64,000 nucleotides of DNA from a virus, in IMG/VR virus record IMGVR_UViG_3300029651_000001, positions 22,512 through 86,511 of that record. The stretch is one strand, 5' to 3'. Shown one piece after another: positions 2,212 through 63,659 of this stretch (within the stretch, counting starts at the first letter, position 1; the number at the start of each line of letters is the position of its first letter). Made by a program: the position numbers and the translations under genes. The notes beneath the pieces are model-generated. The model did no database searches and was not told the origin of the DNA. It saw only the letters and a list, made by a program, of their open reading frames with translations.

Positions 2212-2478
2212 TTAAGTACCCGTCCTTAACAGCTCCTCGCTGCGATCGATCACCTCGACCTCGCCTGTGGTCTGTATCCAAACCTTTGCGCCGCAAGAGA
2301 GTGGGTTATCCGGCCGGTAAACGACTCGCGCCGCCTCCTTGCCGTCCTGTCCGTAGATGACCACCTCGTGGCCATAGGCGTTAGTCTTGCCTTGCTTGAC
2401 GGTCACCACCGGGAAGCGGAAGCCGTTCCTTGCGTTGGCTTTGATACGATGCTGGTTGACGTGGATGATCGATTTCAT
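2212..2478 (-). CDS. hypothetical protein
   Basis: Internal ATG at 2478 follows the leader AACCCTTTGGAGACC. The longer N-terminal extension in the track overlaps the upstream gene. Confidence 0.7.
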   Translation of the reverse strand: MKSIIHVNQHRIKANARNGFRFPVVTVKQGKTNAYGHEVVIYGQDGKEAARVVYRPDNPLSCGAKVWIQTTGEVEVIDRSEELLRTGT

Positions 2479-8773: not shown

Positions 8774-10753
8774 TCAGAAAAGGATATTGAAAAGACGGGT
8801 GCTGTTTTCGGTGACCACCCGAACCGTCACCGTTTCCCGCTTGGTGGAGGAAAATCCCAAGCCAGCCAACTGCTCATCCGTGACAGGGCACTTGGTCTTA
8901 TCACCCAGGACCTCGAATACCTTGCGGTGCTTTTCCAGAGGACCTGCCAGGAATTCGTTGTAGATTCCCCGAAGCGGTTGGTCGGCCTTGCATCCTTCCA
9001 GGATGAAGAACCAATGCTTGTTGCCGACCGCGCTATCCCCCCAGTAATTGGGACTGAACAGAACGGTGCGGACCTTGACGAACTTCTCCGTGGGGATTCC
9101 CCACACTTTCTTCGAGATTCCTTCTCCGTTCAGCTTGGGGTGAATTCGCGCCTCCACGATGACACCATCCCTGACCACAAACGTGCCCACCTCCACGTTC
9201 CCCACCACACGGTGCGGATAGGTGTACTGCTTGACCCCATTACCGTCAGCGATCTCGGCAATGAAGCCCACGTCAGACGTTTCCCGGTTGGTGTACTGAT
9301 TGACATACACCTGATATACCCCATCCTTCGGTGCCTTGAACGCCACATTTTCAACCGGTTCTCGAGAGGTACCGCAGCCAGCATTCATGTCCACATCCAG
9401 CTTGCCGCTCTTGTTGGCGTAGTAGATGTGATTTCCATTGGGTTCCACCACATGAATGTCCAGATCGTCATAGTTGAACCAGGCCAGACTGAAGCGGAGT
9501 TTGGCGTCCACGTTGCCCCCAGCCTTCTTAACCTTTTCCGTGATACTGTCCGTCACGTTGCCGTTGTAAGACCAGGCAAAGCCGTTGTCCCACTTGAACA
9601 GCCGGCCGGAGTCGGTGTGTACCGGAGCCGTCACCGCGACCAGATTAGGGGTGTGCAAGTTCTTGAACAGAATGCTCATCTCCTTGGCGTTGGGCAGGAC
9701 TTCAGCCATGAACGCTTCGATGGTGACGTCCGCGGCCTGAGCGGTGTTGCCCGGCTTTCGCTCAACGGCTGCAGCCATCAGCAGATCCGCAACCCCACCC
9801 TTCATCATGGGGCGGACGGACCCATCCACCCAGAGAACGTCGTTGACGCTCACGTCGGAGATGGTCGCCAGCCTCCGCTCCAAGGCGGATTCAAGCCCCA
9901 AGCTTTCGATCGTTTCCATGGCTTGCTTGACCATGGCCGGTGTGATCAGCGCCGTCGTACGCTTGTAGTTCGCAGGCGCCACCTTGGTTTCGAAGGAACG
10001 GACAGCAGTTTCAAGGTCGACACCGTCCGACAGATCCGTGACGAGGGTGCCAATGACTGTATTGCGGAACCGCGCCGCCCGGCGAGTATAGTTGCTTGCG
10101 ATGAACAGCCGTCGTTCGGCCGGTTCCAAAGCCTTGTAGGTCCGCAAGCACTCAGCGAACTCCTTCAACGCCGGCAGATGTTCCTCGCCTCGGTACAAGC
10201 TCCCAGCGGCAATCAAGTCGAGGACCGTGTTGGCTGCCTCGACAGTCAACTCCTCCAACCCTCGCTCGAACACGGCCATAGTTGTGGCAGCTTCGCCCAC
10301 ATCCCGGTCGGGGGTACGGGTAAAATGCCGGTCGGCGATCCGACCATGGAAATGGTTCCAGATTTTGGTCTGGCCATCGACCACTTGTGGGGTCGCCGCC
10401 GCACCGTACTGCCGCTCCTTGGTACGGAAGACAGAGACGATAGGCTGGGCCAGGACATGCTCATGCAAGGCTTTGGAAACGACGTCATACGGGTGCTCCA
10501 ATCCGCTTACGTCCCAGAGCGTCTCTACCTTGCCGTCGACGATGGCAACTACTCCGCCCAGGTGTTTGATGAAGTTCCGGCAGCAGGAGCAGTCGTGTTC
10601 CGTATTCGTCCGATAGATCGGGTTTGTTCCTGCCGGAAAGGCGGCAAGATAGATGTCCCAAAGCTTGCTGGAATCGACCACGAAGAGCTCGTGGGCGGAC
10701 AGCTGGGCGAAGCGGGCGGCGGTCTTCTCGGCAAAGGGTTTGAAGTTTGGCAT
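8774..10753 (-). CDS. large conserved-looking early protein of unknown function
   Basis: 660 aa from the ATG at 10753 (SD AAAGGAGAC). N-terminal HDCSCCRNF motif. Central LDIHVVEPNG...LDVDMNAG block resembles the YfaP/DUF2135 type of fold. Confidence 0.85.
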   Translation of the reverse strand: MPNFKPFAEKTAARFAQLSAHELFVVDSSKLWDIYLAAFPAGTNPIYRTNTEHDCSCCRNFIKHLGGVVAIVDGKVETLWDVSGLEHPYDVVSKALHEHVLAQPIVSVFRTKERQYGAAATPQVVDGQTKIWNHFHGRIADRHFTRTPDRDVGEAATTMAVFERGLEELTVEAANTVLDLIAAGSLYRGEEHLPALKEFAECLRTYKALEPAERRLFIASNYTRRAARFRNTVIGTLVTDLSDGVDLETAVRSFETKVAPANYKRTTALITPAMVKQAMETIESLGLESALERRLATISDVSVNDVLWVDGSVRPMMKGGVADLLMAAAVERKPGNTAQAADVTIEAFMAEVLPNAKEMSILFKNLHTPNLVAVTAPVHTDSGRLFKWDNGFAWSYNGNVTDSITEKVKKAGGNVDAKLRFSLAWFNYDDLDIHVVEPNGNHIYYANKSGKLDVDMNAGCGTSREPVENVAFKAPKDGVYQVYVNQYTNRETSDVGFIAEIADGNGVKQYTYPHRVVGNVEVGTFVVRDGVIVEARIHPKLNGEGISKKVWGIPTEKFVKVRTVLFSPNYWGDSAVGNKHWFFILEGCKADQPLRGIYNEFLAGPLEKHRKVFEVLGDKTKCPVTDEQLAGLGFSSTKRETVTVRVVTENSTRLFNILF

Positions 10754-10784
10754 CGGGTCTCCTTTGAAAGGCGTTTCTTGATAG

Positions 10785-11105
10785 TTAGGAAGGGTCACTG
10801 TCGAGCTCCTTCAGAAACTCACGGATTACGGCTCGAGCTTTCTCCATGTTCTCGAGGACTTGTCTGTAGTCAGTGATGATTTCTGCCATCGCCGCTTCCT
10901 CTGCTGCTCGCATCTGCCGCAACAGTCTCAGCATCTCGGGCGCCGCTGCAAGCAGTCTGCCCGTCGCTTGGATTTCCGGCTCGTTAACCTCTCCGTAGAC
11001 AGTGGCTATGCGACCGTAAGGGTCATGGATCTCTAGGTTGTCGCTATCGTTCTCCCCTTCGCCGGGCTGGAGAAGTTGGTATGGGCCATCTATGGGTTTG
11101 CTCAT
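10785..11105 (-). CDS. Ead/Ea22-like protein (paralog G)
   Basis: Motif LLAAAPEMLRLLRQM and C-terminal FLKELDSDPS. Confidence 0.7.
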   Translation of the reverse strand: MSKPIDGPYQLLQPGEGENDSDNLEIHDPYGRIATVYGEVNEPEIQATGRLLAAAPEMLRLLRQMRAAEEAAMAEIITDYRQVLENMEKARAVIREFLKELDSDPS

Positions 11106-14225: not shown

Positions 14226-14383
14226 GCTGCCTCCTCGATGGACTTGTCTAAGGTCAGGTCCTTAAGCTTCTCTTCCCTCTCGGCCTGCTGTCGGCGGAGG
14301 CGTTCCTCCGGCGTAAGGTCGTCGGCCAAGTGGCGGGCGCAATCAAGGACTACGGGGTCAGGAAGTTCAGGAAGTTCCGGCAT
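14222..14383 (-). CDS. 53-aa hypothetical protein
   Basis: Hand translation gives MPELPELPDPVVLDCARHLADDLTPEERLRRQQAEREEKLKDLTLDKSIEEAA. SD is TTGGAGGGTGAAG. Confidence 0.5.
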   Translation of the reverse strand: MPELPELPDPVVLDCARHLADDLTPEERLRRQQAEREEKLKDLTLDKSIEEAA

Positions 14384-15362: not shown

Positions 15363-15422
15363 GGGTTGACCTCCAAAGGGTTAAGTACATGTCCTTGGCG
15401 CCGCGTGCTGGCGGCGCCCAAC

Positions 15423-20658: not shown

Positions 20659-20722
20659 GGTTTGCTCCAAAGGGTTTAAGTACAGGTCCTTAACGCGGAC
20701 CAGACGGTTAACTCAACAGGTG

Positions 20723-22671: not shown

Positions 22672-22716
22672 AGGAGGTCTCCAAAGGGTAAGTACATGTC
22701 CTTAAGGATTGAAGGA

Positions 22717-22745
22717 CATCGGCCGTGGTGAGAACACGGCCGATG
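22717..22745 (-). terminator. 11-bp GC-rich hairpin, possible end of the tmRNA transcription unit
   Basis: CATCGGCCGTG-7 nt-CACGGCCGATG. On the RNA strand it is followed by TCCTTCAATCCTT, which is only moderately U-rich. Confidence 0.35.
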
Positions 22746-22959
22746 GCTTGCCGGATAAGCTCCGGCGGGCTCTTGTTGCTGGACTTGTACGGCTTACAGC
22801 TCCCGTTTGGTTGTACCTTGATTTCCCCCTAATGCTTGCGGGCTGCAGGGTTTGTGCATCTTGGGTGCGCGAATTCCCATGTCCGGACGCAGTCCCAAGT
22901 AGCAATCAAAGCATTACCATCCAACCAATAATGGCTAGGTCGCAGCTCCCCGGATCGTG

Positions 22960-23370
22960 TCTGTTACCGGATAAGCTCCGGCGGGCTGTTGTCGCCAACG
23001 ACTGCGATTCGGTTGCCCGGCTTCTGTTCTCAAGCGCCGGGCAGGCTCGGCTTTAGGCGGCTGCCTTCAGCGGGGCATACGTATCATCGTTTGCCTTTGT
23101 GGTTTTGCGCGGTTAACGCCCGTCGCCTTTCGTGCTGCCATCTCTGCTTTGCTGCCCCGTCGAAACCTGGCTGGCCCATCAGAAGAAGGCTGTTAGAGCG
23201 TGCAGTAGGAGTCGAACCTTCTTTTGGTGGACCAGGCCGGAATTGAACCGGCGTCCGAGACAACTCCACTTCGATGGAGTTACAGCAATTCGGCGCCCAA
23301 TCTATTCGGCAGACTCCCACTGGACTAGGAGCGCATACTGCCGGCATCCCTACAGGGCGGCCAGGTCTGC
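22960..23370 (-). ncRNA. ssrA: circularly permuted (two-piece) tmRNA gene; outer boundaries approximate
   Basis: Acceptor piece ends TCGGACGCCGGTTCAATTCCGGCCTGGTCCACCA, with its 3' A at 23225. A 47-nt spacer follows. Coding piece starts GGGCCAGCCAGGTTTCGACGGGG at 23177. GGGCCAG pairs with CTGGTCC including a G3:U pair. Tag frame GCAAACGATGATACGTATGCCCCGCTGAAGGCAGCCGCCTAA lies at 23094..23053. Confidence 0.85.
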
Positions 23371-23495
23371 CTTATTGTGAAATCGGTAATATCCCTACAA
23401 AGTCCGTGTCTTCTCGTTCTCCAATTAGGGCGACCCCGTCCGGGCGTAATACATCCAGCTAGGATTAAAAATACCGGCGAGGTCGCGGAACACAT

Positions 23496-23522
23496 AATAA
23501 AAAAGCCGGCGTTGAGCCGGCT
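23496..23522 (-). terminator. rho-independent terminator
   Basis: AGCCGGC-GTTGA-GCCGGCT stem-loop, followed on the minus strand by TTTTTATT. Confidence 0.75.
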
Positions 23523-23546
23523 ATGGGGTCAGTTCACAAGGTTTGG

Positions 23547-23786
23547 CTAGCCGTGTGAGCTACACCACCGTTTCGATACGAAATATCCAATCTGGTGGCT
23601 GACTACCCGGTAAACACCTTGCCCAAACCAGCCCTGACTGGGGACACCGTGCTTCTTCCGGCCGTAGATGTCGGCCGCCGGCACTCCGAAGACCCACACG
23701 GCCATGGGCGTCAGGTCGCCTCCGCAAGCGGGGGCCAGGGCTAGGGCGATCGAGAGGTAAAGGGTTAAGGTGATTGTTGATGTCAT
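23547..23786 (-). CDS. small exported/membrane protein
   Basis: Start MTSTITLTLYLSIALALAPACGG after the leader motif. Confidence 0.6.
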   Translation of the reverse strand: MTSTITLTLYLSIALALAPACGGDLTPMAVWVFGVPAADIYGRKKHGVPSQGWFGQGVYRVVSHQIGYFVSKRWCSSHG

Positions 23787-23870
23787 ATGATCTCCAAAGG
23801 GTTGAGGTTGTACATCCTTGTCGGCCGTCCTTGGCCGCATCCTTAAGTACTTGTCCTTAAACTTTCCAGG

Positions 23871-24176
23871 TCAAGGCTGGAACCCGCTTAATGCGTTCTT
23901 CTGACCCTTCAGGAACTGCTGCTCCAACAAGGATCTGAGTTCCTGCTCGGTCAGGATGAAGATGTCTCCGTCCAGTTCGATGAGGCTACCCGCCATTTTC
24001 ACGGTTATCGGCTCGTCGTCGGCAAGGATCAGGTGAGCCAGCTCGTGAGCCAGCTCGTCTTTCAGATAACGGATCGCGTCATCCATGGTGCCGTATCGCG
24101 GGTCTTTCATGTAGGTTTGCTTTGCTCGGAAGCGCCTCTTCGGCAACTCGTTGGCGTCGAATATCTTGTCAAACAT
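23871..24176 (-). CDS. hypothetical protein
   Basis: Start MFDKIFDANEL after the leader variant TACCTTTGGAGAG. Confidence 0.65.
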   Translation of the reverse strand: MFDKIFDANELPKRRFRAKQTYMKDPRYGTMDDAIRYLKDELAHELAHLILADDEPITVKMAGSLIELDGDIFILTEQELRSLLEQQFLKGQKNALSGFQP

Positions 24177-24256
24177 CTTTACCTCTCCAAAGGTAGGACA
24201 TAAACGTCCATAAGGACAAGGGATTGAGGACGTGTACTTAATCAATGAATCCTGAA

Positions 24257-24445
24257 TTAAACGTCATGTTCGGAGAGCCGCTGATATTCGAGGTCGAACC
24301 ATTTCCACCAAATCGATCTCTCGGGCTCTGTTTTATATGGGTTTTCGTCGGCGCTTTGCTCTTGACCGGGACATTGATAATACCGACGAGCTGCTTGAAC
24401 AGCTTCAAGGGCGATTTTGTTTTCGTTCTGCTTATCGATGCTCAT
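24257..24445 (-). CDS. hypothetical protein
   Basis: 62-aa ORF. Confidence 0.5.
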   Translation of the reverse strand: MSIDKQNENKIALEAVQAARRYYQCPGQEQSADENPYKTEPERSIWWKWFDLEYQRLSEHDV

Positions 24446-24457
24446 TATTGTGCCCCG

Positions 24458-24649
24458 TTAGCGTGTCCTTCGGGGTGGCCGTTCGTCGATCTCAATACCT
24501 CGCCGTGCTGCTTCCAGCAATGCCAGCTGTGCGTAAGCCTTGCGGCCGGCGGCGGATTCCTTCTCGTAAACGCCGCGGACTTGGGCATCCGTACAGGTTT
24601 TGACGTAAAGCGTGAACTCGAGTCGATCTCGTTTGGTCATTGATTTCAC
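24458..24649 (-). CDS. hypothetical protein
   Basis: 63-aa ORF. An alternative start MTKRDRLEF lies at codon 4. Confidence 0.5.
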   Translation of the reverse strand: MKSMTKRDRLEFTLYVKTCTDAQVRGVYEKESAAGRKAYAQLALLEAARRGIEIDERPPRRTR

Positions 24650-24672
24650 CTTGATGTGTGGGTTGACGTTGT

Positions 24673-25347
24673 TCAGGGTTCCTCTGCAAGAAGGCTCAAT
24701 CGCTCCGCTTCGATCTCTTCGTCGGTCAGGTCGACGGGCTGGATCTTGCTGGCGAGGGCGGACAAGTCTTCCGTATGTTCCGTGAAGTTCTGCGGCGGCT
24801 GGCCTGCTCGCAAGGTGGCAAGGTAAGGGATTATGAAATGGTCCAGCGTGGATTTCATGATCTCTTTGGCCGCGTTTTGTAAGTGTATGGTTAACTTTTC
24901 GGCAATGATGCTTTCGGCTTCCGTGACTAGACTCCTCAGCAGTGTCGCTTCCGCTGTCTCTCGAACCTCAAAGACGGGCATTCCCGCCCGACCAAAGACC
25001 ACCCATTCGTCCGACAGGTCCAAACCAAACCGAGTACGCCGGTTGTTTCGGCTGTAAATCGACGTAATCGACAGGTTGTACTTCTGGACCCACTCGTCAA
25101 TAGGCCAAGTAATACCTCGAATAGTGAACGTCAGCACGGACTTACGAGTCCGGCGATCCCTAGGCTGCCCGTAGTCCGTATGACAGCGACAGCGGAACCG
25201 TCCTTGGTTCCACAAGGATGTGGAAATCGAGCGTAATCCCTCACAGGAATTACACATAGCAAGCCAGTGTTTCCCTCTTCTTCCCTCGGGTCCGTGAGAT
25301 GTCCCAATGACTTTGTACCCATTCTTAGTGTCGCCGATCTTTGGCAT
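24673..25347 (-). CDS. first gene of the leftward early operon; N-terminal Cys cluster, unknown function
   Basis: 224 aa with motif WLAMCNSCEG...FRCRCH. Lies directly downstream of the AT-rich intergenic region. Confidence 0.75.
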   Translation of the reverse strand: MPKIGDTKNGYKVIGTSHGPEGRRGKHWLAMCNSCEGLRSISTSLWNQGRFRCRCHTDYGQPRDRRTRKSVLTFTIRGITWPIDEWVQKYNLSITSIYSRNNRRTRFGLDLSDEWVVFGRAGMPVFEVRETAEATLLRSLVTEAESIIAEKLTIHLQNAAKEIMKSTLDHFIIPYLATLRAGQPPQNFTEHTEDLSALASKIQPVDLTDEEIEAERLSLLAEEP

Positions 25348-25913
25348 ACCATCACCTGTAAAAACTAAATAAGGCAGGAGTTCTACGCAAAATGGCGTAG
25401 ATTTAGTTTGATATTGTTAGTTTAAGTTTGATTTTGCGTCCGCGCAACAAAATCATTCTGCCATAACCCGTATGTACAAGAGAGTCGGGTATGATTCTGT
25501 CCATGCCAATCTGTGTGTACTTGCAACAGAAACGCTCGTTCAATAACTGAGATCATAGCCGGGTTTATTTGTCAATACATGCGCGCAAAAAGCATGTATA
25601 ACTTATGTACAACGCAGTTGGCCAGAAATTTTAGATTTTTGGGCGGCGATGTACAAAAAGTATAGCTACGGGGTCGTTAGTATTGCTGCCAGCGTTTTGA
25701 CGCGGTGTTGAGGAAAATCAATGGTATACCTGGGAGACTTTGACGCTGTGCAGCGTAAAGCAAGGTTTTAAGTCTTTTTCGATATTAGAAAATGCTAATG
25801 CGCTTCCTAAAACAACTTTCGCTCGCAGCAGCGAACCAGCAGGCGCGATTTACGCCCAATGAATTTTTCGACTTTGCTCCTCAAAATAAAAAAACTAACA
25901 ATACTTCAATAAT
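25348..25913. promoter_or_regulatory. AT-rich non-coding control region (candidate early promoter/operator or origin)
   Basis: No credible ORF. ATGTACAA occurs at 25472, 25605 and 25649. Palindrome ATACATGC-N9-GCATGTAT lies at 25575..25599. AACTAAAT...ATTTAGTT hairpin lies near 25365-25410. AGTTTGAT direct repeats are present. Confidence 0.6.
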
Positions 25914-26180
25914 CTATACATTAGAAGGCATGTTCTTTGCATCCTTATGATTTACGTTTAGAATCAAAGGGTTAGACCACTCTTGCCAAGTCCATACCTC
26001 TCCTTGCTGGACCACCCAACCCATTCCTGACTCGCCTTGTTCCTGGATAAACACGATTGCAAACTTCTCCCCAAGCTTCCTTGCCTGGGACACAGCGACA
26101 TCCCACCCCTCAACCACCCTCCCCAGCAACACCACCTCTTCTTGCAGCTCCACGCCGACCCTTACTTCATACCGACGCAT
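25914..26180 (-). CDS. hypothetical protein
   Basis: Start MRRYEVRVGV after AGAGAGGCAATT. Confidence 0.5.
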   Translation of the reverse strand: MRRYEVRVGVELQEEVVLLGRVVEGWDVAVSQARKLGEKFAIVFIQEQGESGMGWVVQQGEVWTWQEWSNPLILNVNHKDAKNMPSNV

Positions 26181-26347
26181 AATTGCCTCTCTTGCTGCCG
26201 GGCCACCAACTCCGCCTTGACTTCCGACATTTCCGCGGCCAATAAATCCCTCTCCACGCCTGGCGTCATCTTTGACAGCTGCCGTACCAACATCGACAGC
26301 GTCACCGTCAACACCTTCGTATCCTGACAAAGCCCCTCATTACTCAT
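26162..26347 (-). CDS. hypothetical protein
   Basis: 61 aa with an ATGA junction to the upstream gene. Confidence 0.45.
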   Translation of the reverse strand: MSNEGLCQDTKVLTVTLSMLVRQLSKMTPGVERDLLAAEMSEVKAELVARQQERQLCVGMK

Positions 26348-26556
26348 GCGAATAACCTCCCGACAGCGTTGTCTACGTCCTTGCGAGCTGCCAGCTCCCG
26401 CTTCAAGATCCGTATGGCTAGATTACAATCTAGCCTTACATTACCCGGATTCAAACGATCTCTGAGGATCTCCAGTTCGAGCAGACGTGCTCGGATTTGT
26501 TGCTCACTTGCTGTGTCGGCGAAGCGGGTGACATTCTTGATAAATTCTTCAGGCAT
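26344..26556 (-). CDS. hypothetical protein, paralog of 26754..26963
   Basis: Start MPEEFIKNVT after a family-A palindrome and the leader motif. Confidence 0.6.
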   Translation of the reverse strand: MPEEFIKNVTRFADTASEQQIRARLLELEILRDRLNPGNVRLDCNLAIRILKRELAARKDVDNAVGRLFA

Positions 26557-26585
26557 GACACATCTCCAAAGGGTAATGACAACCT

Positions 26586-26606
26586 CAAGGACAGCCGTCC
26601 TTAAGG
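26586..26606. promoter_or_regulatory. family-A palindrome
   Basis: CAAGGAC-AGCC-GTCCTTAAGG. Confidence 0.5.
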
Positions 26607-26608
26607 CA

Positions 26609-26635
26609 TGAAAAAAGCCGGCGATCAGCCGGCTT
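26609..26635 (-). terminator. rho-independent terminator
   Basis: AAGCCGGC-GATCA-GCCGGCTT stem-loop, followed on the minus strand by a T-run. Confidence 0.7.
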
Positions 26636-26753
26636 GCATCCATACAGCGTCAGCGACGCTGTGCAATACACATGTGTATTCGGTTTGCAGTTTTACGTGC
26701 CCCAAACCGGAAAAGACACGCTTAAGGACAACTGTCCCTAAGGTGTTACAGCG

Positions 26754-26963
26754 TCACTGACGCTGTTCATCCTTACGGTCGGCCGCGTAGCGGCTAGCCA
26801 ATTCCTTCTTTAACACTTCGACGGCGTGCTGCGCTGCCGCACGCGTACCGTCGTTCTCGCCGTGCTCGGCGAGAATGGCCAAAGCCACCAATTGAGCGAG
26901 GATGGTTTCCTCGCTTGCCTTGGAGGCAAGGAGGTCCACCCATTGGCAGAAATGTGTGGGCAT
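26754..26963 (-). CDS. hypothetical protein, paralog of 26344..26556
   Basis: Start MPTHFCQWVD. Its stop codon lies inside a family-B palindrome. Confidence 0.6.
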   Translation of the reverse strand: MPTHFCQWVDLLASKASEETILAQLVALAILAEHGENDGTRAAAQHAVEVLKKELASRYAADRKDEQRQ

Positions 26964-27032
26964 TTCAGGTTTCTCCAAGGACAGTATTCTTATGACTGAC
27001 GCTGTCAAGACAGCGTCGATGGGTTCGCATCC

Positions 27033-27052
27033 TTAAGGACGGCTGTCCTTAA
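27033..27052. promoter_or_regulatory. family-A palindrome (perfect 8+4+8)
   Basis: TTAAGGAC-GGCT-GTCCTTAA. Confidence 0.55.
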
Positions 27053-27297
27053 TGAGCGACGGCTCCCCCGCAATAGCCGCAGTCGCCGTGGCGTGTGCGG
27101 TCCCCGCCGTCGGGGCACTCACACCGGCGGGGCATAGGGGCAGGCAGCATCTCCCAAGTCACCCACTCCGCCCCTTGCGGGGCGTTTTCGAGTGTGTAAC
27201 GAGCAGCATCCTTGCCGGTCAGTTCCCCGTCGTGCTGAACGAGGAATGATCCTTGGTCGCAAAAGGCATCCCAGCCCCAGTAGACTCGGTACAACAT
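27049..27297 (-). CDS. hypothetical protein with C-terminal Cys cluster
   Basis: Start MLYRVYWGWD and motif CECPDGG...CGYCGG. Leader variant upstream. Confidence 0.6.
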   Translation of the reverse strand: MLYRVYWGWDAFCDQGSFLVQHDGELTGKDAARYTLENAPQGAEWVTWEMLPAPMPRRCECPDGGDRTRHGDCGYCGGAVAH

Positions 27298-27392
27298 AGG
27301 GATTCTCCAAAGGTAGGACAGCGTCAGCATTCATACGGCTGACGCTGTAGGGCTAAAAGGCCCCGAGTACAGGCGTACTCGGGGAGCGGGAA

Positions 27393-27686
27393 CTAGTCCC
27401 GCATGTCGAAGATGTGTAGGGCTTTCGCCTCGAACTGAGGCGGAGCCCCTTCCGGGGCTCGGTTGGCGTTCTCGAAGACGCCAACCATGAATGAGGAGGA
27501 CAGCCGCATAGCAGCGGCCGGATGGACTACGACGACGCCCTCGAAGGCGCCGCGCTCGTAAACCCACGATGGGCTTACGGTGAATGCGTCGGCGTCGCCG
27601 ACGCCGACCAGCTCGATCCCTTGCTCTGCGGCAAGGGATATCTGTTCGTGGGTGGGAGTGTGACGGCTGATAAATGCAAATCTCAT
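27393..27686 (-). CDS. hypothetical protein
   Basis: Start MRFAFISRHTPT after CGGAGATCC. Confidence 0.65.
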   Translation of the reverse strand: MRFAFISRHTPTHEQISLAAEQGIELVGVGDADAFTVSPSWVYERGAFEGVVVVHPAAAMRLSSSFMVGVFENANRAPEGAPPQFEAKALHIFDMRD

Positions 27687-27924
27687 TGTATGGATCTCCG
27701 ATGAAAGTACAGCGCCCACGTTTACCACATTGCCGCCCTGGGCGCGTAGGGCGGCAAGCTTGCCGACTACCCTACGGGCGGGTAGTCAGCGTCGGTAACT
27801 TCTGTGACGTCTAAGAACTCGACGATCATGGCGGTTCTCCAGGGGTTGAGGGAAACAGCGTCAATGACGCTGTCCCGGTCGAAGAAAGTAGGCACTAATT
27901 CCTTGTGCCGAGTGTGGGGTGTCC

Positions 27925-28245
27925 TTAGAATATACGGGTGACACCTTTGGCTTTGGGCGTCTCGCCCTGCCAAAAGACGACCTTGAGCCGCGGATAGTGC
28001 TGATCGCGGTACTTGATCGCGGTCTGAAACGGCGTGTTTTTATCGAATTCAATCCGAACGTCGCCGAATTCATCCTGAAGCGTTAAGGACCTGTACTTAA
28101 GCCAGCGTGTCTTTGCCGCGAGGTCATCCAATTCCGAGCCAGTGAATCCCTGGCCCAGGATCGGGCGAATCCGGCCGCGGCTGTCCACACGTTCGCCAAA
28201 CGCACGGCGGCGCCCATGGTGGGAATGGGGGGAATCTTCGTGCAT
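27925..28245 (-). CDS. hypothetical protein
   Basis: Start MHEDSPHSHHG after AATGGAGTC. Confidence 0.6.
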   Translation of the reverse strand: MHEDSPHSHHGRRRAFGERVDSRGRIRPILGQGFTGSELDDLAAKTRWLKYRSLTLQDEFGDVRIEFDKNTPFQTAIKYRDQHYPRLKVVFWQGETPKAKGVTRIF

Positions 28246-28264
28246 GGTTGACTCCATTTGAGTG

Positions 28265-28327
28265 CTAAGGACATGTCCCTAGCGGGTTAGGGACATGTCC
28301 TTAACAGCGCCGTCCTTGGCGCTGTCC
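28265..28327. promoter_or_regulatory. cluster of three palindromes
   Basis: CTAAGGACATGTCCCTAG at 28265..28282. TTAGGGACATGTCCTTAA at 28287..28304. ACAGCGCC-GTCCTT-GGCGCTGT at 28305..28326. Confidence 0.55.
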
Positions 28328-28330
28328 AGG

Positions 28331-29035
28331 TTATGCGCGGCGACGTCTCGGCTGAGTTGCCTTTTCCAGTTCAGCCACTAGAGTGGCGTTCATTGCCTTC
28401 AGGTTTTCGATTTCCTGATAAGCTGCAATCAGCTCTTCAACCATTTTGGCTTTGTCGCTATCGAGTGCCGCAACCTGATCACGAAGTTGCCTGTTTTCCT
28501 TAAGCACTTCCTGTATTTTGGCATTGGCGCTGTCGAGCCGTTCCTTCGCTGACTTTTCCCGCTCTTCCGGGTTAGGTTGACTTGCCCCAATGGCGGCCGC
28601 TTCTGCTGTCTGTGCAGGTGTTTCGTTCGCTTCAGGTGCAGGCAACCGCTTTGCACGTCCAGCGACAACACCCGCTTTACCTTCGCCACTGATACCGAAG
28701 GTTTTACCTTCGGGCAGTGACAAGGTGAACTGTCCACGTTTCCACCATTGCAAGACGCGTTCACGGACACGCCTAAGCGCTTCGGGTGAGTTGCGCTCAC
28801 TGTCTACGATCGCCTGCAGCACAGTGATCTTTTCTTCGTCCGTGCTGCGGGCACGGACAGCTGCAAGCGCTTTGCCTTCGTAGCTAGCTGCTTTCTGGTA
28901 CGCAGCAACAGCGAAGTCTTTCGCCTCATCGACTGTCAATGCTTGCAAGTCGTCAAAGCTGGCTTTTTCCAAGTCAACGGCCAGAATGAGTTCGCCAGAA
29001 ACAGCGCCAGTGTTTAAGTCTTTGTTTTCGCTCAT
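28331..29035 (-). CDS. coiled-coil protein, first leftward gene at the divergent switch region
   Basis: 234 aa with C-terminal heptad-like sequence and an RRRRA end. Confidence 0.75.
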   Translation of the reverse strand: MSENKDLNTGAVSGELILAVDLEKASFDDLQALTVDEAKDFAVAAYQKAASYEGKALAAVRARSTDEEKITVLQAIVDSERNSPEALRRVRERVLQWWKRGQFTLSLPEGKTFGISGEGKAGVVAGRAKRLPAPEANETPAQTAEAAAIGASQPNPEEREKSAKERLDSANAKIQEVLKENRQLRDQVAALDSDKAKMVEELIAAYQEIENLKAMNATLVAELEKATQPRRRRA

Positions 29036-29054
29036 CGTTTTATCTCCGAAAGTG

Positions 29055-29112
29055 TTAAGTACATGTCCCTAAGCGGGACTCGTTAAGTACACGTCCTTAA
29101 GGACGCTGTCCT
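29055..29112. promoter_or_regulatory. cluster of three family-A palindromes in the divergent intergenic region
   Basis: TTAAGTACATGTCCCTAAG, TTAAGTACACGTCCTTAA and the overlapping TTAAGGACGCTGTCCT. Confidence 0.55.
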
Positions 29113-29328
29113 CAGTAGGCGCACCCTTCCCGTGCCGGTCAGAACCAGCTCGACGGGGTGCGCCGTACTATTAAAGAGCAACCCGGCCGGGGTGCTATCT
29201 CAGCAAGCCCGCAGGGTGACAATAGTATTGACCCTGGCCATGACTTTTACTAGGGTGAGAATGGGCCTATATATAGCCCCACCCCACAAATTTTTGCCAA
29301 TCCGAAACCTATCCATTACAATTACTAC

Positions 29329-29703
29329 ATGGTCAAAGACACCATCACCAAACAAACCTCCACCGGCCTCGTCTACCAAGCCCGTCTCCGGGATCGGAAG
29401 ACCCGCCGGATCACTTATCTTGGGGTGTGCCACACCCGCGAGGAGCTCGATGCTCTCTACTCCTCCGCCTTATCGGCCCACAAAACAGGGCAACCTTTGC
29501 CGACCAAAACCAACAAGGTCAAAGTCGGTGACGCTGTCCTGACTCGAACCCAGTGGTACCAGGTCCTCAAGGTCTGCCAGCAAGCCGTTTACCAGGCTGC
29601 CGCTCGCCGCAACCTCTCCGTCGAAGAGGAAATATCCCGCCGGGCGAGCCTCCTAGATCCACCCCTTCTTGCCGAAAGAGTGAAAATCGTCTCGAATCCC
29701 TGA
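29329..29703 (+). CDS. AP2/ERF-like DNA-binding protein, first rightward gene
   Basis: Motif GLVYQARLRDRKTRRITYLGVCHTREELDALY resembles the AP2 beta-sheet/helix pattern. Confidence 0.65.
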   Translation: MVKDTITKQTSTGLVYQARLRDRKTRRITYLGVCHTREELDALYSSALSAHKTGQPLPTKTNKVKVGDAVLTRTQWYQVLKVCQQAVYQAAARRNLSVEEEISRRASLLDPPLLAERVKIVSNP

Positions 29704-31836: not shown

Positions 31837-32003
31837 AGTGGCTCAGGGAGGCTTTTTGTTGGCACGAGCTGCGCTTTGTAAACCGACTGCGGCTGGTCAG
31901 GAAAAACAATTGGCTGGAGAGCGTCCCGGTTACCGAGCTGTGCTGTTGGAAGTGCGGCGCGGATGAGCAGAGGCTGCTCTCGTTATGGGGATTTTGGGCC
32001 TGA
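31830..32003 (+). CDS. 57-aa Cys-containing protein
   Basis: Hand translation gives MLKWLREAFCWHELRF...CCWKCGADEQRLLSLWGFWA. TGATG junction with the terminase gene. Confidence 0.45.
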   Translation: MLKWLREAFCWHELRFVNRLRLVRKNNWLESVPVTELCCWKCGADEQRLLSLWGFWA

Positions 32004-33790
32004 TGCACCCTCTTGTCGTTGAGTACTTTGATCGTATCCACGACGCTGTCCTTGAAACGTCTAGCCTGAGTCGCGTTTCGGACTGGATGACGAAGCGGAC
32101 CTTCCTGAACGGGAAACCTTTTAGCTTCAAGGATCACGAGTACCAGATCGAGATCGTCAATACCCAGCACCCGAACTCTTGTTGTATCAAGCCGTCCCAG
32201 GTAGGTATGTCGGAGGCGGAATACCGGATGACTCTTGGGTTGCTGGACATGACGCCCGATAGCGTTGCCCTGCTCCTCATGCCTACCGTCCACGAGGCTC
32301 AGCGTCAGGTCAAGAGCCGTATTGATCCGATCATCCAGGGCTCGAAACACTTGAATTCCAGATTGAATCCTGGAAGTGACTCGGCCAGCTTCAAAATGAT
32401 CGGAACTAGTCAGCTCCATGTTGGAGGGACTTACGGCAAGGCGATCATTTCTATCCCTTGCTCTATGGTAATCGTCGATGAACGGGATTTCTGCAACCCA
32501 GAAGCGTTGATCACCGCGGAGTCCCGCTTGTCGCATGCGCCGCATGTCGACGAAAAGACCGGTCTCCGTGGATTTCGGCGGGAATTTTCGACGCCGACGG
32601 CGTCAGGCATAGGGGTATCGGAATCGTTCGAGCAGTCGGATCAGAAGCGCCGGCTAGTCAAATGCAAGCGCTGTGGTCATTGGTTTTGGCCTAATCTGTT
32701 GGTCCACGGGGTGATCCCAGGGTTCGACCGGAGTCTGGAGGACATCACCTACCTGGATGTCCGGGCGTTGGAAGCCAAAGGGCAGATCGCTAATGCCAAA
32801 ATCCTTTGCGAAAAGTGCCACAACCCGATTACCAAAGAGAATTTGGGGCCGGAGTACCGGGAGTGGGTGGCGGCCCACCCAGAACGGTATCTGGTGGAGG
32901 GGTTCGCGGTAAGTCCGTTTGATTTGCCGGAGTACCACACGGCCCCGACCTTGTTGCGGAAGTTGATCAAGTTCAAGAACGAGTTCGGCCACTGGAAGAA
33001 CTTCACGCTGGGGCTGTCCCACGACGACGCCAGTAACTCTATCCTCGACGAGGTCGTCGAGGAAAACACTGTAATCAAGCCGATCCCTCCGGACGTGGCG
33101 GAGGCGATGAAGCTGCACGGCTGCATTGCCGGGCTCGACGTTGGTAAAACGTCGTGGCTGACGATCGGCAAGGTGGTCGGCCGGAAGGTCCACATCCTGT
33201 GGGTCGAACAGATCCGGCTTCGAGGCGAGAACGGCGACGGCCTGAAGGAGCATGTCATCAAGCGGCTCAAGCAGTATGGCGTCATCCGCTTCGTATCTGA
33301 CGCCCTACCTTACACCGACACGATTCTTAGTATTCGAGACGCGATGCCGGACCAGTTGGTGTACCCCTGCATGTACACCTTGACCGACAAGAAACTGCCG
33401 GCATACGTCCCCAAGGAAACGGAGGGAGAGCGTCAGGTGGACGCCAACCGAACCAAGACGTTGAACCGGGTGGCCAAGCGGGTGAATGGTGGTGAGGTCC
33501 TGTTTCCGATGATGGACGAGATGGAAACCGTTCGGGACCATTTTCAAGGGATGAAGCGGGTGGATCAGACCGACGACCACGGCGAGGTCGAGCAAAACTG
33601 GGTCAAAGGCAGCCGGGACGACCACTACTTTCACGCAGCCAATTACTTGCTGATCGCGGCGGACATGATGGAGGAGTACTACGGGGACTGGGCGCCGGTG
33701 CCTTCGATCACGCAGATCGAGGTCGGTAAAAAAGCAATAGTTGACAAACCGCCCTTGTTCTTGAGGCCGGCCTCCACTAAGATACTGTAA
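32003..33790 (+). CDS. terminase large subunit (GpA-like)
   Basis: About 595 aa. Motifs KPSQVGMSEAEY (Walker-A-like region of the GpA family) and IVDERD. Sits upstream of the portal gene. Confidence 0.85.
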   Translation: MHPLVVEYFDRIHDAVLETSSLSRVSDWMTKRTFLNGKPFSFKDHEYQIEIVNTQHPNSCCIKPSQVGMSEAEYRMTLGLLDMTPDSVALLLMPTVHEAQRQVKSRIDPIIQGSKHLNSRLNPGSDSASFKMIGTSQLHVGGTYGKAIISIPCSMVIVDERDFCNPEALITAESRLSHAPHVDEKTGLRGFRREFSTPTASGIGVSESFEQSDQKRRLVKCKRCGHWFWPNLLVHGVIPGFDRSLEDITYLDVRALEAKGQIANAKILCEKCHNPITKENLGPEYREWVAAHPERYLVEGFAVSPFDLPEYHTAPTLLRKLIKFKNEFGHWKNFTLGLSHDDASNSILDEVVEENTVIKPIPPDVAEAMKLHGCIAGLDVGKTSWLTIGKVVGRKVHILWVEQIRLRGENGDGLKEHVIKRLKQYGVIRFVSDALPYTDTILSIRDAMPDQLVYPCMYTLTDKKLPAYVPKETEGERQVDANRTKTLNRVAKRVNGGEVLFPMMDEMETVRDHFQGMKRVDQTDDHGEVEQNWVKGSRDDHYFHAANYLLIAADMMEEYYGDWAPVPSITQIEVGKKAIVDKPPLFLRPASTKIL

Positions 33791-36075: not shown

Positions 36076-37488
36076 ATGTCAGGGATCGACATGCACCGCT
36101 TCGAACTATGGATGGGGAATTCCGCCTCGCTGGATGACTATATCCAGCGCATTCAGGCTGTTTCCAAGGGGCTTTACGCCTACTCTGATGACGATAGCCC
36201 GGATCCGGTCTATTTCGACCTACAAGGCAACCTCGGCATCGTTCCCATTAAGGGGTCGTTGACCAACAGCGACGCCTGGTACAACCGGTTCCTTGGCCTC
36301 ACCTCTTACACCCAAATCCGCAATGCCTTGATCGAGGCGTCTCAACACCCGGACGTCGAGACCATTCTCATGACGGTCGACTCGGGAGGAGGCTCTGCCT
36401 CCGGCGTTTCCGATCTCGGTCAACTCATCAAGCTGATCAATGCCGACGTCAAGCCGGTAGTCGCACACACCAGTGGCACGATGGCTTCCGCCGCGTATTG
36501 GCTTGGCGCTTCGGCCGGCAAGGTTTACGCCTCGGACACCGCGGCCGTCGGCAGTGTTGGCGTTATCGCCGTCCACATGGACATCTCGAAGTCGCTGCAG
36601 CAGGACGGCATCAAAGCCACAGTGTTCCGCGCTGGGGACTACAAGGCGCTCGCCAACCCGTACGAACCCTTGTCCGACCGGGCCAAGGCGCAGATGCAGA
36701 GCCAGCTTGACACCCTGTACAGCATTTTTGTCGACCACGTCGCAGACGCTCGAGGCGTGAGCGCGGCCTACGTCAAGGAGCACATGGCCGACGGCAAGGA
36801 GTTCATTGGCAAGGACGCCAAAGACGCTGGGCTGGTGGACGAAATCCTGTCCCTCGATCAGCTCGTTCAGAAATTGCAGGCCGAGAAGCCTGCTGACTCA
36901 CGATACAAGGAGGTATCCGTGGCACAGAAATCCCGCAAATTGACCGATAAGACGGTGGCTGCGATTGCAGCCGGCGTCGACGTGAAGACCGCTCTGGAAC
37001 AAGCGCCGGAAAGCGAAACGGAGACGACCGAGACGCGTACAGACCCTACCCCCGAGGCGAATACCGAGCTCCCCGCAACGGACCCCACGCCTGCGGCTGA
37101 GGACTCCGAGCCCAAGACTTCTCAGGACCAGGCGCCCCTCGTCAATTATCTGCAAACCCAATTGGACGCCAAGACCAGCGAGCTTGTCGATCTGAAGGCT
37201 GCCAACAAGCAGCTGGAAGCTCAGCTGGCCGGTTACAAGGCCAATGAACCTGAGCTCTGCAAGATCGTGGCGCAGTACACCAACAAGATGCAGATCGCTT
37301 TAGGTGGCATAGCCGTGGATCTATCCAAGCTGCCGGCCGACACCTTGCTGGCACAGTGCGCTCAGGTCCAGGAAACCTTCAACAAAACCTTCCCGGTTGG
37401 GGGCGTAACGGCGACCCCGTCCATGGAGGAATCCCCGACAGCCGAAGCGGACCCCGCCAAGCTCAGAGCCGTTAAGCTGAAGAAATAA
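36076..37488 (+). CDS. S49-family head maturation protease fused to a scaffold-like C-terminus
   Basis: Motifs VDSGGGSASG and GTMASAAYWLG. The C-terminal half is acidic and coiled-coil. An alternative start lies at 36091. Confidence 0.85.
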   Translation: MSGIDMHRFELWMGNSASLDDYIQRIQAVSKGLYAYSDDDSPDPVYFDLQGNLGIVPIKGSLTNSDAWYNRFLGLTSYTQIRNALIEASQHPDVETILMTVDSGGGSASGVSDLGQLIKLINADVKPVVAHTSGTMASAAYWLGASAGKVYASDTAAVGSVGVIAVHMDISKSLQQDGIKATVFRAGDYKALANPYEPLSDRAKAQMQSQLDTLYSIFVDHVADARGVSAAYVKEHMADGKEFIGKDAKDAGLVDEILSLDQLVQKLQAEKPADSRYKEVSVAQKSRKLTDKTVAAIAAGVDVKTALEQAPESETETTETRTDPTPEANTELPATDPTPAAEDSEPKTSQDQAPLVNYLQTQLDAKTSELVDLKAANKQLEAQLAGYKANEPELCKIVAQYTNKMQIALGGIAVDLSKLPADTLLAQCAQVQETFNKTFPVGGVTATPSMEESPTAEADPAKLRAVKLKK

Positions 37489-62372: not shown

Positions 62373-62570
62373 CTAGATGTTGTCTTCTGGAAAGAGATCC
62401 CGGCGCCGAATCCCTCGGGCCAACAACCCCAACCTAACCTTGTTCATGGCTTCCTTCTCTATTTGCTCGACACGGCACCGGCTGATGCCCAACTCTTGGG
62501 CAATCTCGCGGTAAAGGGCGCCGTCTTTGTTGGAGTGATCTGGTAAATCAGAGGCGTTCTGTTCGGACAT
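62373..62570 (-). CDS. sigma-70 region-4-like HTH mini-protein
   Basis: Motif YREIAQELGISRCRVEQIEKEAMNKVR. Leader motif upstream. Confidence 0.7.
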   Translation of the reverse strand: MSEQNASDLPDHSNKDGALYREIAQELGISRCRVEQIEKEAMNKVRLGLLARGIRRRDLFPEDNI

Positions 62571-63576: not shown

Positions 63577-63659
63577 TTCAATCTCCAAAGGGTTAAGTTG
63601 CCTTGCTATTTGGTGAAGTGCTCACCAGAACTGCCCTCTCAAGAGAGGGCAGCCTACTG

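Follow-up and report, generated by a model that had tools for sequence, protein, structure and literature searches.

The leftward early arm of an uncultivated phage carries one short palindrome many times over, and the question is what, if anything, reads it. The phage is 86 kb in size, integrase-carrying and siphovirus-like. About 15 strong copies of an 18-20 bp sequence, termed family A, are found between early genes in the window, i.e., the whole 64,000-nucleotide stretch of DNA that was analysed. Judged from their sequence, they are most likely DNA docking sites for a putative dimeric regulator, which would be a familiar kind of phage gene control.

Occurrence and placement of the family-A palindromes

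The pattern TTAAGKAC-N2-4-GTMCYTAA (family-A consensus TTAAGGACATGTCCTTAA, half-site centres spaced 10 bp) has 15 strong copies in the window, and both halves hold the 8-nt consensus at these 15 loci. With at most two mismatches per half, the sites are at 2212, 15381, 20676, 22688, 23843, 24224, 26585, 26722, 27033, 28083, 28265, 28287, 29055, 29083 and 29097. The palindrome family described in an earlier note on this DNA is thus real and its coordinates were right to within 1 nt. All copies listed there, the outliers 15381 and 20676 included, were recovered, but the copy at 2212 had been missed. Searched in its exact form, the pattern has 15 strand matches, which fall at 10 sites; 100 dinucleotide-preserving shuffles have none. 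The note had also proposed a weight-matrix scan of the whole phage, with a chance frequency as the outcome that would speak against the family. A half-site matrix run over the 86.4-kb genome yields 21 sites at a cut-off of at least 14 bits, six of them outside the matrix training set, where Markov simulations average 0.3; the frequency is not that of chance.

Counting both strands, the window has 25 exact copies of the half-site 8-mers TTAAGGAC and TTAAGTAC, and 20 of these are inside palindromes. By our own count and estimate, ~5 stand alone where ~4 are expected by chance; lone half-sites are not enriched, which points to the pair as the functional unit. Each half has G or T at position 6 irrespective of the other (6 GG, 9 GT and 0 TT sites, with 7.4, 6.3 and 1.4 expected), i.e., the degeneracy of the two halves is independent. 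Where two spacing classes, N2 and N4, had been proposed, the 15 strong sites fall into three: N2 (11 sites), N3 (one) and N4 (three).

All 21 sites are in the leftward minus-strand early arm, and the whole-genome scan shows none in the 31-kb late arm. Thirteen are inside the 8.5 kb adjoining the divergent control region. Coding sequence makes up ~84% of the arm, yet 13-14 of the 15 strong copies are located between genes; one, 28083, is within a coding frame. Pile-ups are found as the note had claimed, with two sites at 28.27 kb and three at 29.05-29.11 kb in a 293-bp divergent gap; the three head the early operon and the two are in the next gap. The statement that most copies abut the leader aACCCTTTGGAGa does not hold, as only 4-5 do so directly and the remainder are 20-165 nt 5′ of the start codon. 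This leader is a genome-wide ribosome-binding signal; it serves ~38 minus-strand genes, and the majority of these lack a palindrome.

Individual sites and their conservation

The divergent control region (29036..29328) separates the leftward gene 1 (28331-29035, minus strand) from a rightward 124-aa gene. It has three sites in its left 80 bp and, on the plus strand at 29294-29322, a sigma-70-like TTGCCA-17-TACAAT. The outermost site, of the N3 class (29097..29115, transcript sense CTGAGGAC-AGC-GTCCTTAA, 22.9 bits), reads TTGGGGAC-AGT-GTCCTTAA in variant L071 and overlaps its neighbour by 4 bp. That second site (29083..29100, transcript sense TTAAGGAC-GT-GTACTTAA, 28.6 bits) is identical in L071 despite substituted flanks, and the third (29055..29072, TTAGGGAC-AT-GTACTTAA, 25.7 bits), 19 nt upstream of the gene 1 start codon, is identical in all variants.

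The gap after gene 1 holds two tandem sites that are 22 bp apart centre to centre: 28287..28304 (TTAAGGAC-AT-GTCCCTAA) and 28265..28282 (CTAGGGAC-AT-GTCCTTAG), the latter 19 nt upstream of the gene for a 106-aa protein. Directly upstream of the double site is a GC-rich hairpin (28305..28327, minus strand, ACAGCGCC-AAGGAC-GGCGCTGT, -16.2 kcal/mol). It shows a compensatory A-T to G-C change in L071 and L074, and in L075 it has the same stem and an AAGGAA loop. Hairpin and both sites form a conserved block: beside a gene 1 allele of only ~65% nucleotide identity, where it precedes a different gene, the block is ~91% identical, both GGACATGTCC cores are the same and 28287 is kept at 18 of 18 positions. 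Cores that stay the same while flanks at ~65% identity carry scattered changes argue for constraint and not recent copying. Among variants, 28265 keeps its GGACATGTCC core and has CTAG, TTAG, TTGA or TTGG at the outer positions; 28287 is a perfect palindrome in L074.

The site within the 106-aa frame (27925-28245) is reversed (28083..28100, transcript sense TTAAGTAC-AG-GTCCTTAA) and is identical in L094, which has 92% identity over the stretch. Further into the operon is a perfect palindrome of the N4 class (27033..27052, TTAAGGAC-AGCC-GTCCTTAA, 29.6 bits, RNA fold -8.6 kcal/mol) that overlaps the stop codon of an 82-aa gene and differs in six variants by its spacer only (AGCC to AACC). Two more N4 sites follow: 26722..26741 (TTAGGGAC-AGTT-GTCCTTAA, -8.3 kcal/mol), which is terminator-like by consensus scan, and 26585..26604 (TTAAGGAC-GGCT-GTCCTTGA, -8.6 kcal/mol), which has a 70-aa gene 28 nt further on and, 10 nt before it, the T-run (TTTTTT) of a canonical intrinsic terminator.

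The remaining strong sites are of the N2 class. A reversed copy is in the gap ahead of a 101-aa gene (24224..24241, TTAAGTAC-AC-GTCCTCAA, 24.8 bits). The copy ahead of a 79-aa gene (23843..23860, TTAAGGAC-AA-GTACTTAA, 28.6 bits) is followed by a small hairpin, GGCC-AAGGAC-GGCC. Site 22688..22705 (TTAAGGAC-AT-GTACTTAC, 24.3 bits) abuts the leader of a 213-aa gene downstream of the tmRNA gene. The leader is 2 nt away at 20676..20693 (TTAAGGAC-CT-GTACTTAA, 28.6 bits) and 1 nt away at 15381..15398 (CCAAGGAC-AT-GTACTTAA, 22.0 bits), which is directly past a CAGCAC-loop hairpin. The intergenic copy at 2212..2229 (TTAAGGAC-GG-GTACTTAA, 28.6 bits) has a start codon 37 nt on. A weaker match in coding DNA (14248..14265, 20.7 bits) and weak matches at window positions 7255, 11173 and 19574 and genome positions 5060 and 20392 (outside the window) are of uncertain status.

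Strain variants keep every site, with changes confined to spacers or outer positions. The earlier note had named absence from related phages as a reason to give up a regulatory role, and the motif is indeed absent from the more distant relatives L046, L047/L090, G002 and G003, but not from the close variants. The absence is weak counter-evidence, since related phages often have different immunity and operator specificities and the close variants keep all sites.

DNA sites, transcript elements and other readings

The palindromes may represent double-stranded DNA binding sites for a symmetric, probably dimeric, regulator, and together a putative dispersed operator array spanning the leftward early arm; our confidence in this is about even. 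Operators of a dimeric phage regulator, as the note had suggested, are the best fit to the dyad symmetry, the tandem arrays, the lack of a lone half-site excess, the independent degeneracy of the halves and the core conservation, although the search for a binder described below found none. The two tandem arrays (three sites heading the early operon, two in the following gap) would act on initiation or early elongation, and single sites at ~ten further gene junctions might be extra operators or roadblocks that shut or tune the long early transcription unit. We infer that a protein binds the sites, that it represses and that it is phage-encoded.

Several observations count against an operator. 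Spacers of two, three and four nucleotides should not be expected of a rigid dimer and are more typical of hairpins, and the N3 and N4 sites have stable folds. Seven of the nine mixed sites share one orientation relative to transcription and two have the opposite one, a bias that is not significant at this sample size; together with the 4-5 sites that abut the ribosome-binding leader, this hints at a transcript-tied function. No convincing sigma-70 promoter overlaps the family-A sites, neighbouring sites at distances of 14.5, 22, 24 and 28 bp have no constant helical phase, and distant relatives are without the motif.

The alternative offered in the note, 5′-UTR RNA hairpins, is disfavoured for the N2 class, but the sites with longer spacers, three N4 and one N3, may be of that kind. 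As RNA, 10 of the 11 N2 sites are essentially unstructured, folding at only -0.3 to -1.8 kcal/mol, and overall 9 of the 15 sites would have a G.A or U.C mismatch at position 6/13; the N4 and N3 sites fold at -7.4 to -8.6 kcal/mol. In a broader form, small stem-loops or protein-binding sites in polycistronic early transcripts, just 5′ of ribosome-binding sites, could possibly regulate translation as operators, direct transcript processing or stability, or load an antiterminator in the manner of nut sites. Such an RNA-level element agrees with the confinement of sites to gaps in the transcribed leftward arm, often 0-2 nt from the leader, and with the variable spacer length. Several left-half A-to-G changes would keep G.U pairs in the transcript sense, positions 1/18 of 28265 change together (C..G to T..A; T..G in L074), true hairpins with compensatory changes share the same gaps, and the 106-aa protein has an arginine-rich N-terminus. 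However, A.C mismatches would arise at 28287, 24224 and 15381, mixed and symmetric versions would differ in RNA shape and yet follow one DNA consensus, and two sites are reversed. We consider an RNA-level role unlikely, but worth weighing.

There is a slim chance that the oriented TTAAGGAC-NN-GTACTTAA plus leader marks starts for a phage-modified or alternative RNA polymerase holoenzyme. The 7 to 2 orientation bias, the 4-5 sites whose distance to the leader is short and fixed, and a phage-encoded 65-aa sigma-70 region-4-like protein are consistent with this, and in our own reading AGGACA-17-TACTTA spans 29097 and 29083. A strong intrinsic terminator stands immediately ahead of 26585, which means that genes beyond this site depend on either read-through or a fresh start. 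Yet genome profile scans found no phage RNA polymerase or full sigma factor, the element is dyad-symmetric, unlike promoters, and the -10-like hexamer does not have the invariant final T. Moreover, many genes after terminator-like hairpins have the leader and no site, one site is in coding DNA and two are reversed.

Equally improbable are inert or recombination-related junction repeats that were copied locally along with the leader cassette, or mark the borders of modules, with no regulator reading them. The two tandem arrays do have a near-identical 26-nt segment in common, the right half-site overlaps the common extended leader CTTAAC-CCTTTGGAG, the double site in variants is at the edge of a replaced segment ahead of a different gene, and distant relatives have no sites. 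Against this stand the cores unchanged amid diverged flanks, the consensus held in both halves at 15 loci, the intergenic placement and the clustering at the control region.

Candidate binders and known systems

If the sites are DNA operators, a binder might be encoded by the phage. As the note had found, the phage has no recognisable CI/Cro-like repressor; ~120 reading frames scanned against Pfam and PHROG gave no CI, Cro, XRE, RHH or S24 family match, which counts against an operator. Two proteins are specific to site-bearing genomes, the gene 1 product and the 106-aa protein, and no DNA-binding fold was seen in either, which also weighs against it. Other DNA-binding proteins in the genome are a Crp/Fnr-like protein, encoded outside the window, and the 65-aa sigma-70 region-4-type HTH and an HU-like protein, both encoded inside it; none of the three could be linked to family-A sites.

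A further reading keeps the operator mechanism and takes as binder the Crp/Fnr-like protein of the phage (genome 6956-7660, minus strand) or else a global regulator of the host; it has little probability. In its favour, the gene for this cNMP-binding and HTH_Crp_2 protein is in the same arm at a distance of 36-44 kb, Crp/Fnr proteins are dimers on palindromes, and AAGGA-N4-TCCTT and AAGGA-N6-TCCTT can, in our own reading, be picked out inside N2 and N4 sites. However, the recognition helix of the protein retains the Arg-Glu pair that CRP, Vfr and Clp share, all readers of TGTGA-type boxes, and a near-CRP box, GGTGA-N6-TCACA, is ~90 nt upstream of its own gene, whereas family A has no such core.

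Dispersed operators have precedents. Cluster A mycobacteriophages (L5 gp71, TipsytheTRex repressor) carry more than 20 copies of one short site across the genome, mostly in short intergenic gaps and with more copies at the early promoter; these stoperators are thought to block initiation and elongation, and are asymmetric 13-mers bound by a two-domain monomer in a strictly orientation-dependent function (PMC9283540). Family A likewise has many copies of one site, mostly intergenic, with further copies at the early control region, but its 18-20 bp sites have dyad symmetry and all lie in one arm, and no gp71-like repressor was detected in the phage genome.

In plasmid RK2, short perfect palindromes at many transcription units are read by the small dimeric HTH repressors KorA and KorB. 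The palindromes here are also short and dispersed, and the 65-aa HTH has a faint KorA-family match (E 0.002, below Pfam's cut-off); RK2, however, is a plasmid with unrelated operator sequences, and the 65-aa HTH is not linked to the sites. The phiC31 repressor binds 17-bp conserved inverted repeats (CIR) in gaps near early promoters and terminators, and phage P1 has dispersed, asymmetric C1 operators. Both have a known binder, one repressor serving well over a dozen operators scattered through early genes. The many scattered copies among early genes are similar, but host phyla and proteins are unrelated, the P1 operators lack symmetry, and for family A no binder was found.

Lambda-type OL/OR operators are dyad-symmetric sites of ~17-18 bp in tandem groups of two or three, a few bp apart, and these arrays head early operons in a divergent control region. 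Unlike lambda, the phage here has no cI or cro between or beside the arrays, ~ten single sites are far downstream inside the operon, and the within-site spacer varies from 2 to 4 bp. The tandem arrays of three and two, with dyad sites heading an early operon in a divergent control region, nevertheless resemble OL/OR-type arrays.

Occurrence and placement of the palindromes

The 86,511-bp record, which has a 127-bp terminal repeat, represents a siphovirus-like phage. Its rightward late arm encodes a large terminase (31985-33790), an S49 prohead protease (36076-37488) and a tape-measure protein (47761-53235); a tyrosine integrase is found on the leftward strand (61014-62123). Minus-strand genes extend from the divergent gap at 29036-29328 to window position 1 and on round the circle to the xis/int end. 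The replication genes, encoding a family A DNA polymerase, a primase, an SNF2 helicase, SbcCD-like proteins and a ligase, are outside the window, likewise on the minus strand.

The exact family-A pattern, TTAAGKAC-N2-4-GTMCYTAA, gives 15 strand matches at 10 sites in the window and none in 100 shuffles. The earlier note had counted about 15 copies; its twelve core copies and two outliers are recovered with at most two mismatches per half, together with an extra copy at 2212. The scan of the whole phage that it proposed was carried out with a half-site weight matrix trained on the 15 strong sites (spacers of 2-4 bp, threshold at least 14 bits). This places the sites far above chance, with 21 detected in the whole genome against 0.3 expected in simulated sequence. 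Six of the 21 are weaker sites absent from the training set. The minus-strand arm holds all of them, 13 within 20.6-29.1 kb, and the 31-kb late arm none.

When gene starts are checked by hand, 13-14 of the 15 strong sites prove to be intergenic, while coding sequence takes up ~84% of the arm; site 28083 is within the reading frame of a 106-aa protein (27925-28245). Single sites at gene junctions mostly adjoin a hairpin or terminator. Most copies had been described as abutting the ribosome-binding leader, but contact is found at just four or five sites. Nor is the leader a particular partner of the palindrome. This strong ribosome-binding sequence, aACCCTTTGGAGa, is a general translation signal on ~38 minus-strand genes, with the form (C)TTAAC-CCTTTGGAGA ahead of the start codon (e.g. 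22677-22687, 20663-20673 and 15369-15379), and is mostly missing from late plus-strand genes. The sequence is similar to the T7 gene 10 leader with its epsilon enhancer and Shine-Dalgarno sequence.

The 80 bp upstream of gene 1 (28331-29035, minus strand), which heads the leftward early operon, is filled by three sites, 29097, 29083 and 29055. The next gap displays a GC-rich hairpin and then sites 28287 and 28265, the double site. A near-identical 26-nt segment is common to the three-site and two-site arrays; duplicated control regions share such segments. No reading frame is present within the gap separating the divergent genes. A sigma-70-like promoter was seen only for the rightward 124-aa gene (TTGCCA-17-TACAAT, 29294-29331, plus strand). 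Its TACAAT ends 6 nt before the ATG at 29329, so the transcript of this gene may be leaderless.

DNA site or RNA hairpin

In transcript sense the consensus is TTARGGAC-N2-4-GTMCTTAA, with a spacer of 2 bp in 11 of the strong sites (N2 class), 3 bp in one and 4 bp in three. The stable fold expected of a 5′ UTR RNA hairpin fails in the N2 class (11/15 sites), whose 2-nt loop is too short to close. By RNAfold, the N2 sites reach just -0.3 to -1.8 kcal/mol in ten of eleven cases and -6.3 kcal/mol in the other, 28265; N3/N4 sites have values of -7.4 to -8.6 kcal/mol and the neighbouring ACAGCGTCA...TGACGCTGT hairpins -12 to -19 kcal/mol. In nine of the 15 sites GGAC is paired with GTAC, and folding would leave a G.A or U.C stem mismatch at position 6/13, the paired G/T position of the two half-sites. 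The N3/N4 sites do have stable folds, and variants of the phage show only spacer changes in them.

Both halves fit a single 8-nt matrix, the site being an 18-20 bp dyad. At position 6 there are 6 GG, 9 GT and 0 TT sites (7.4, 6.3 and 1.4 expected); the G/T choice behaves as if two equal half-sites were degenerate independently of each other. Counting both strands, the window has 25 exact half-site 8-mers, 20 of them inside palindromes by manual count. The five lone copies are close to the chance estimate of about four, so that the pair is the unit. In N2 sites the half-site centres are 10 bp apart, which is one helical turn. Together, the weak folding, independent halves, paired half-sites and 10-bp spacing point to a symmetric dimer on double-stranded DNA and not to a conserved RNA fold.

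The chances are about even that the family-A sites are operators of a dimeric regulator, which would act both where the early-left operon begins and at many of its internal junctions. A role at the RNA level is the next best reading, an unlikely one that nonetheless has several points in its favor: spacer length is not constant, seven of the nine mixed GGAC/GTAC sites are oriented the same way, though not significantly so (binomial p about 0.18), and several outer-position changes preserve G.U pairs in transcript sense. Against it stands the poor folding of the main class. Rfam covariance models run over the whole window matched the tmRNA only, with no match to family A. GGA recognition of the CsrA/RsmA type and sequestration by SD/anti-SD pairing were both rejected for the palindromes: GGA is within the stem of the stable versions, and the main class does not fold.

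It is quite improbable that the sites are promoters. A sigma-70 scan detected no convincing host-type promoter over the palindromes, and the family-A element is symmetric, unlike the asymmetric ~20-bp promoters of single-subunit RNA polymerases. No gene for such a polymerase was found: the 947-aa protein is a primase, and the 674-aa protein is a member of a widespread family of unknown function.

Conservation of the sites and search for a binder

Many near-identical copies of the phage and several variants are present in public assemblies. In variants at 99.4% identity every site is kept, and the few changes are in a spacer (27033, AGCC to AACC) or at outer positions. Four variants (L075, L077, L092 and L102), otherwise 99.4% identical, carry a second allele of gene 1 with ~65% DNA and 59% protein identity. 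The left breakpoint of the allele swap (window 28246-28983 vs L075:6250-7105) is within gene 1, near 28983. The 3′ block of hairpin, site and site is still ~91% identical; both GGACATGTCC cores are unchanged, and the scattered changes fall in the loop, in the spacer between the two sites and at the outermost bases. Cores that are kept beside a diverged allele suggest constraint and argue against recent copying. That the sites, for all their placement at gene junctions, are inert repeats is given little credence. An extra gene, for a 41-aa hydrophobic membrane peptide, accompanies the second allele and separates the double site from the 106-aa gene. The GC-rich hairpin beside the double site has a compensatory A-T to G-C change in variants L071 and L074, which shows how a true pairing constraint appears in this genome.

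Relatives L047 and L090, from one metagenome, have no family-A site, no 106-aa gene and a different gene 1. Their control region is shared with the phage in its right part; also common to both are the ACAGCGTCA hairpins and the genes for the 82-aa, 97-aa and 124-aa proteins, the last with 63% identity in L047. The motif is absent from L046 (89% terminase identity) and from two 85-kb phages (~30% terminase identity), and none of the relatives found via the terminase (L046-L068, G001-G005) has it; the palindrome CGTTACCGGTAACG is present in three copies in L059. The exact palindrome has only single-copy chance matches in IMG/VR, and palindrome plus leader has no match in viral or metagenome contigs. 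Among metagenome and genome contigs the double-site pattern was detected in one contig of the same lineage, L102, the rest being unrelated tandem repeats or long hairpins. In a text search, half-site words matched primers and an unrelated direct-repeat box, and nothing else. Megablast of 12 kb had no match among cultured phages, none of which is close to this phage in DNA sequence. As motif scans of viral, metagenome and genome collections reach this lineage only, the motif is lineage-specific. Immunity specificities are frequently lineage-specific.

A Bacteroidaceae MAG (L113:2900-2965) displays three tandem TGAAGGAC-TR-GTCCTTAR palindromes with 22-bp spacing upstream of a small gene, adjoining a HigBA-like pair and an HU-like gene. 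The core is that of family A and the genome is unrelated; these may be chance matches or an unrelated operator array.

The absence of a recognizable CI/Cro-like repressor, reported in the earlier note, was borne out: Pfam and PHROG searches of ~120 frames detected no CI, Cro, XRE, RHH or S24 protein and no gp71-type repressor (N-terminal HTH plus stoperator domain). HTH_3, CI, Cro and Peptidase_S24 have no match anywhere in the genome, and the early small proteins have no Pfam or PHROG matches. Of the early proteins just two, gene 1 and the arginine-rich 106-aa protein, track with the sites, and both are orphans, gene 1 after an exhaustive HMMER search. AlphaFold predicts for gene 1 (pLDDT 77) a confident helical domain and a long C-terminal helix, a putative coiled coil; the model of the 106-aa protein is poor (pLDDT 60). 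Foldseek searches with the two models gave nothing significant and matched no DNA-binding folds, and PDB sequence searches with the gene 1, 124-aa and 106-aa proteins gave no matches. The 124-aa, 97-aa and 82-aa proteins are unlikely binders because homologues occur in the site-free L047 and L090. A 65-aa protein with a sigma-70 region-4-type HTH (62373-62570, beside xis/int) has a faint KorA match; its homologues are near-identical only and thus uninformative, and it is absent from L046. Also recognizable as DNA-binding proteins are an HU-like protein (50-331) and a candidate AlpA-like excisionase judged by eye. With the tools used, no candidate protein can be tied to the sites.

Within the operator reading, there is a slim chance that the binder is a Crp-like protein or host factor. 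The replication module, outside the window, includes the gene for a Crp/Fnr-like protein (cNMP_binding plus HTH_Crp_2; genome 6956-7660, minus strand; L069). This protein most resembles Xanthomonas Clp and Vfr and retains the Arg-Glu pair of CRP type; ~90 nt upstream of its own gene is a CRP-like box, GGTGA-N6-TCACA. The family-A sites have neither a TGTGA-N6-TCACA nor a TTGAT-N4-ATCAA core, and were rejected as Crp/Fnr sites.

With 15 strong and six weaker sites, three at the early operon head, the array is like the stoperators of cluster A mycobacteriophages, which number >20, mostly in short intergenic gaps, and include early-promoter sites. Stoperators are asymmetric 13-bp sites bound by a monomer, and by analogy the family-A array would work like them and the cluster A operators in function (PMC9283540). 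Family A differs in being an 18-20 bp dyad and falls outside the stoperator family, since stoperators are asymmetric 13-mers read by a monomer. In orientation, which for stoperators follows the direction of transcription, the nine mixed family-A sites show a seven-to-two bias short of significance, and the composition of left and right half-sites does not differ significantly (Fisher p about 0.11). The tandem family-A arrays look like lambda OL/OR; the phage is without a cI/cro pair, and no sigma-70-like promoter was found over these arrays. Dispersed repressor sites are also known in phiC31 and P1, which the family-A array would be like in function.

A narrower proposal, which we regard as unlikely, is that a repressor of unrecognized fold uses the array as a silencing network, much as with stoperators, in this phage, whose host is probably betaproteobacterial. 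Spacers of 2-4 bp would then be tolerated because the coiled coil would tether the DNA-binding domains flexibly. Dispersed operator arrays are an already known kind; particular to this one are the lack of a recognizable repressor and the variable spacer. Should binding be confirmed, the array would be one more example of temperate phages controlling long early operons by a dozen or more operator copies, and not solely by a single OL/OR switch. Its source would be an uncultivated lineage that has no recognizable repressor and probably belongs to Betaproteobacteria as hosts. In practical terms the gain is modest: the motif marks the phage early control region for annotation and is a bait for the regulator, which may belong to an undescribed family, in DNA pull-down.

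Neighboring elements of the genome

A circularly permuted tmRNA gene of betaproteobacterial type (22987-23342, minus strand; Rfam beta_tmRNA 119 bits, tmRNA_permuted 124 bits; ARAGORN tag ANDDTYAPLKAAA) is flanked by a strong terminator (23522-23504) and site 22688. The type of this tmRNA suggests a betaproteobacterial host.

The second hairpin family, ACAGCGTCA-loop-TGACGCTGT, is found in the same gaps as family A (26640-26665, 26745-26765, 26990-27020, 27315-27345 and 27850-27872) and is kept at L047:51-101 and L090:560-620. As they have no T-run, these hairpins are probably not terminators but elements of RNA processing or stability. Small GC-stem hairpins with a hexaloop of AAGGAC, AAGGAA or AAGGAT are present at 28305-28327 and ~23812-23825, and at L090:425-445 and 1650-1790; about eight tandem copies of GTTTCGTAAGGATGC are upstream of a gene in L090. 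These GGA-in-loop motifs are reminiscent of CsrA/RsmA binding sites and of sponge RNAs.

A 569-bp AT-rich non-coding stretch (25348-25916) contains three copies of ATGTACAA and sigma-70-like hexamers; G + C is 48.6% over 24001-26000 compared with 55-57% nearby. Behind it is a 224-aa orphan gene (24673-25347, minus strand) that is missing the common leader. The two may form a unit that is independently expressed, moron-like or expressed in lysogeny. A GspH/FimT-like minor pseudopilin (Pfam E 1.4e-9), whose N-terminus has a methylation motif, is encoded on the minus strand at 59971-60561, in the stretch separating the tail genes from the integrase. The 674-aa protein of unknown function (8774-10798, minus strand; phrog_1735, E 4e-233) has homologues (44-53% identity) in many phages, among them N4-like and Vi1-like ones and 'EBPR siphovirus 2'. 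A non-coding tandem repeat of ~135 bp (window 63600-64000 plus genome 1-250), located between the nrdB-like and 203-aa genes, yields a spurious open frame spanning the ends of the record.
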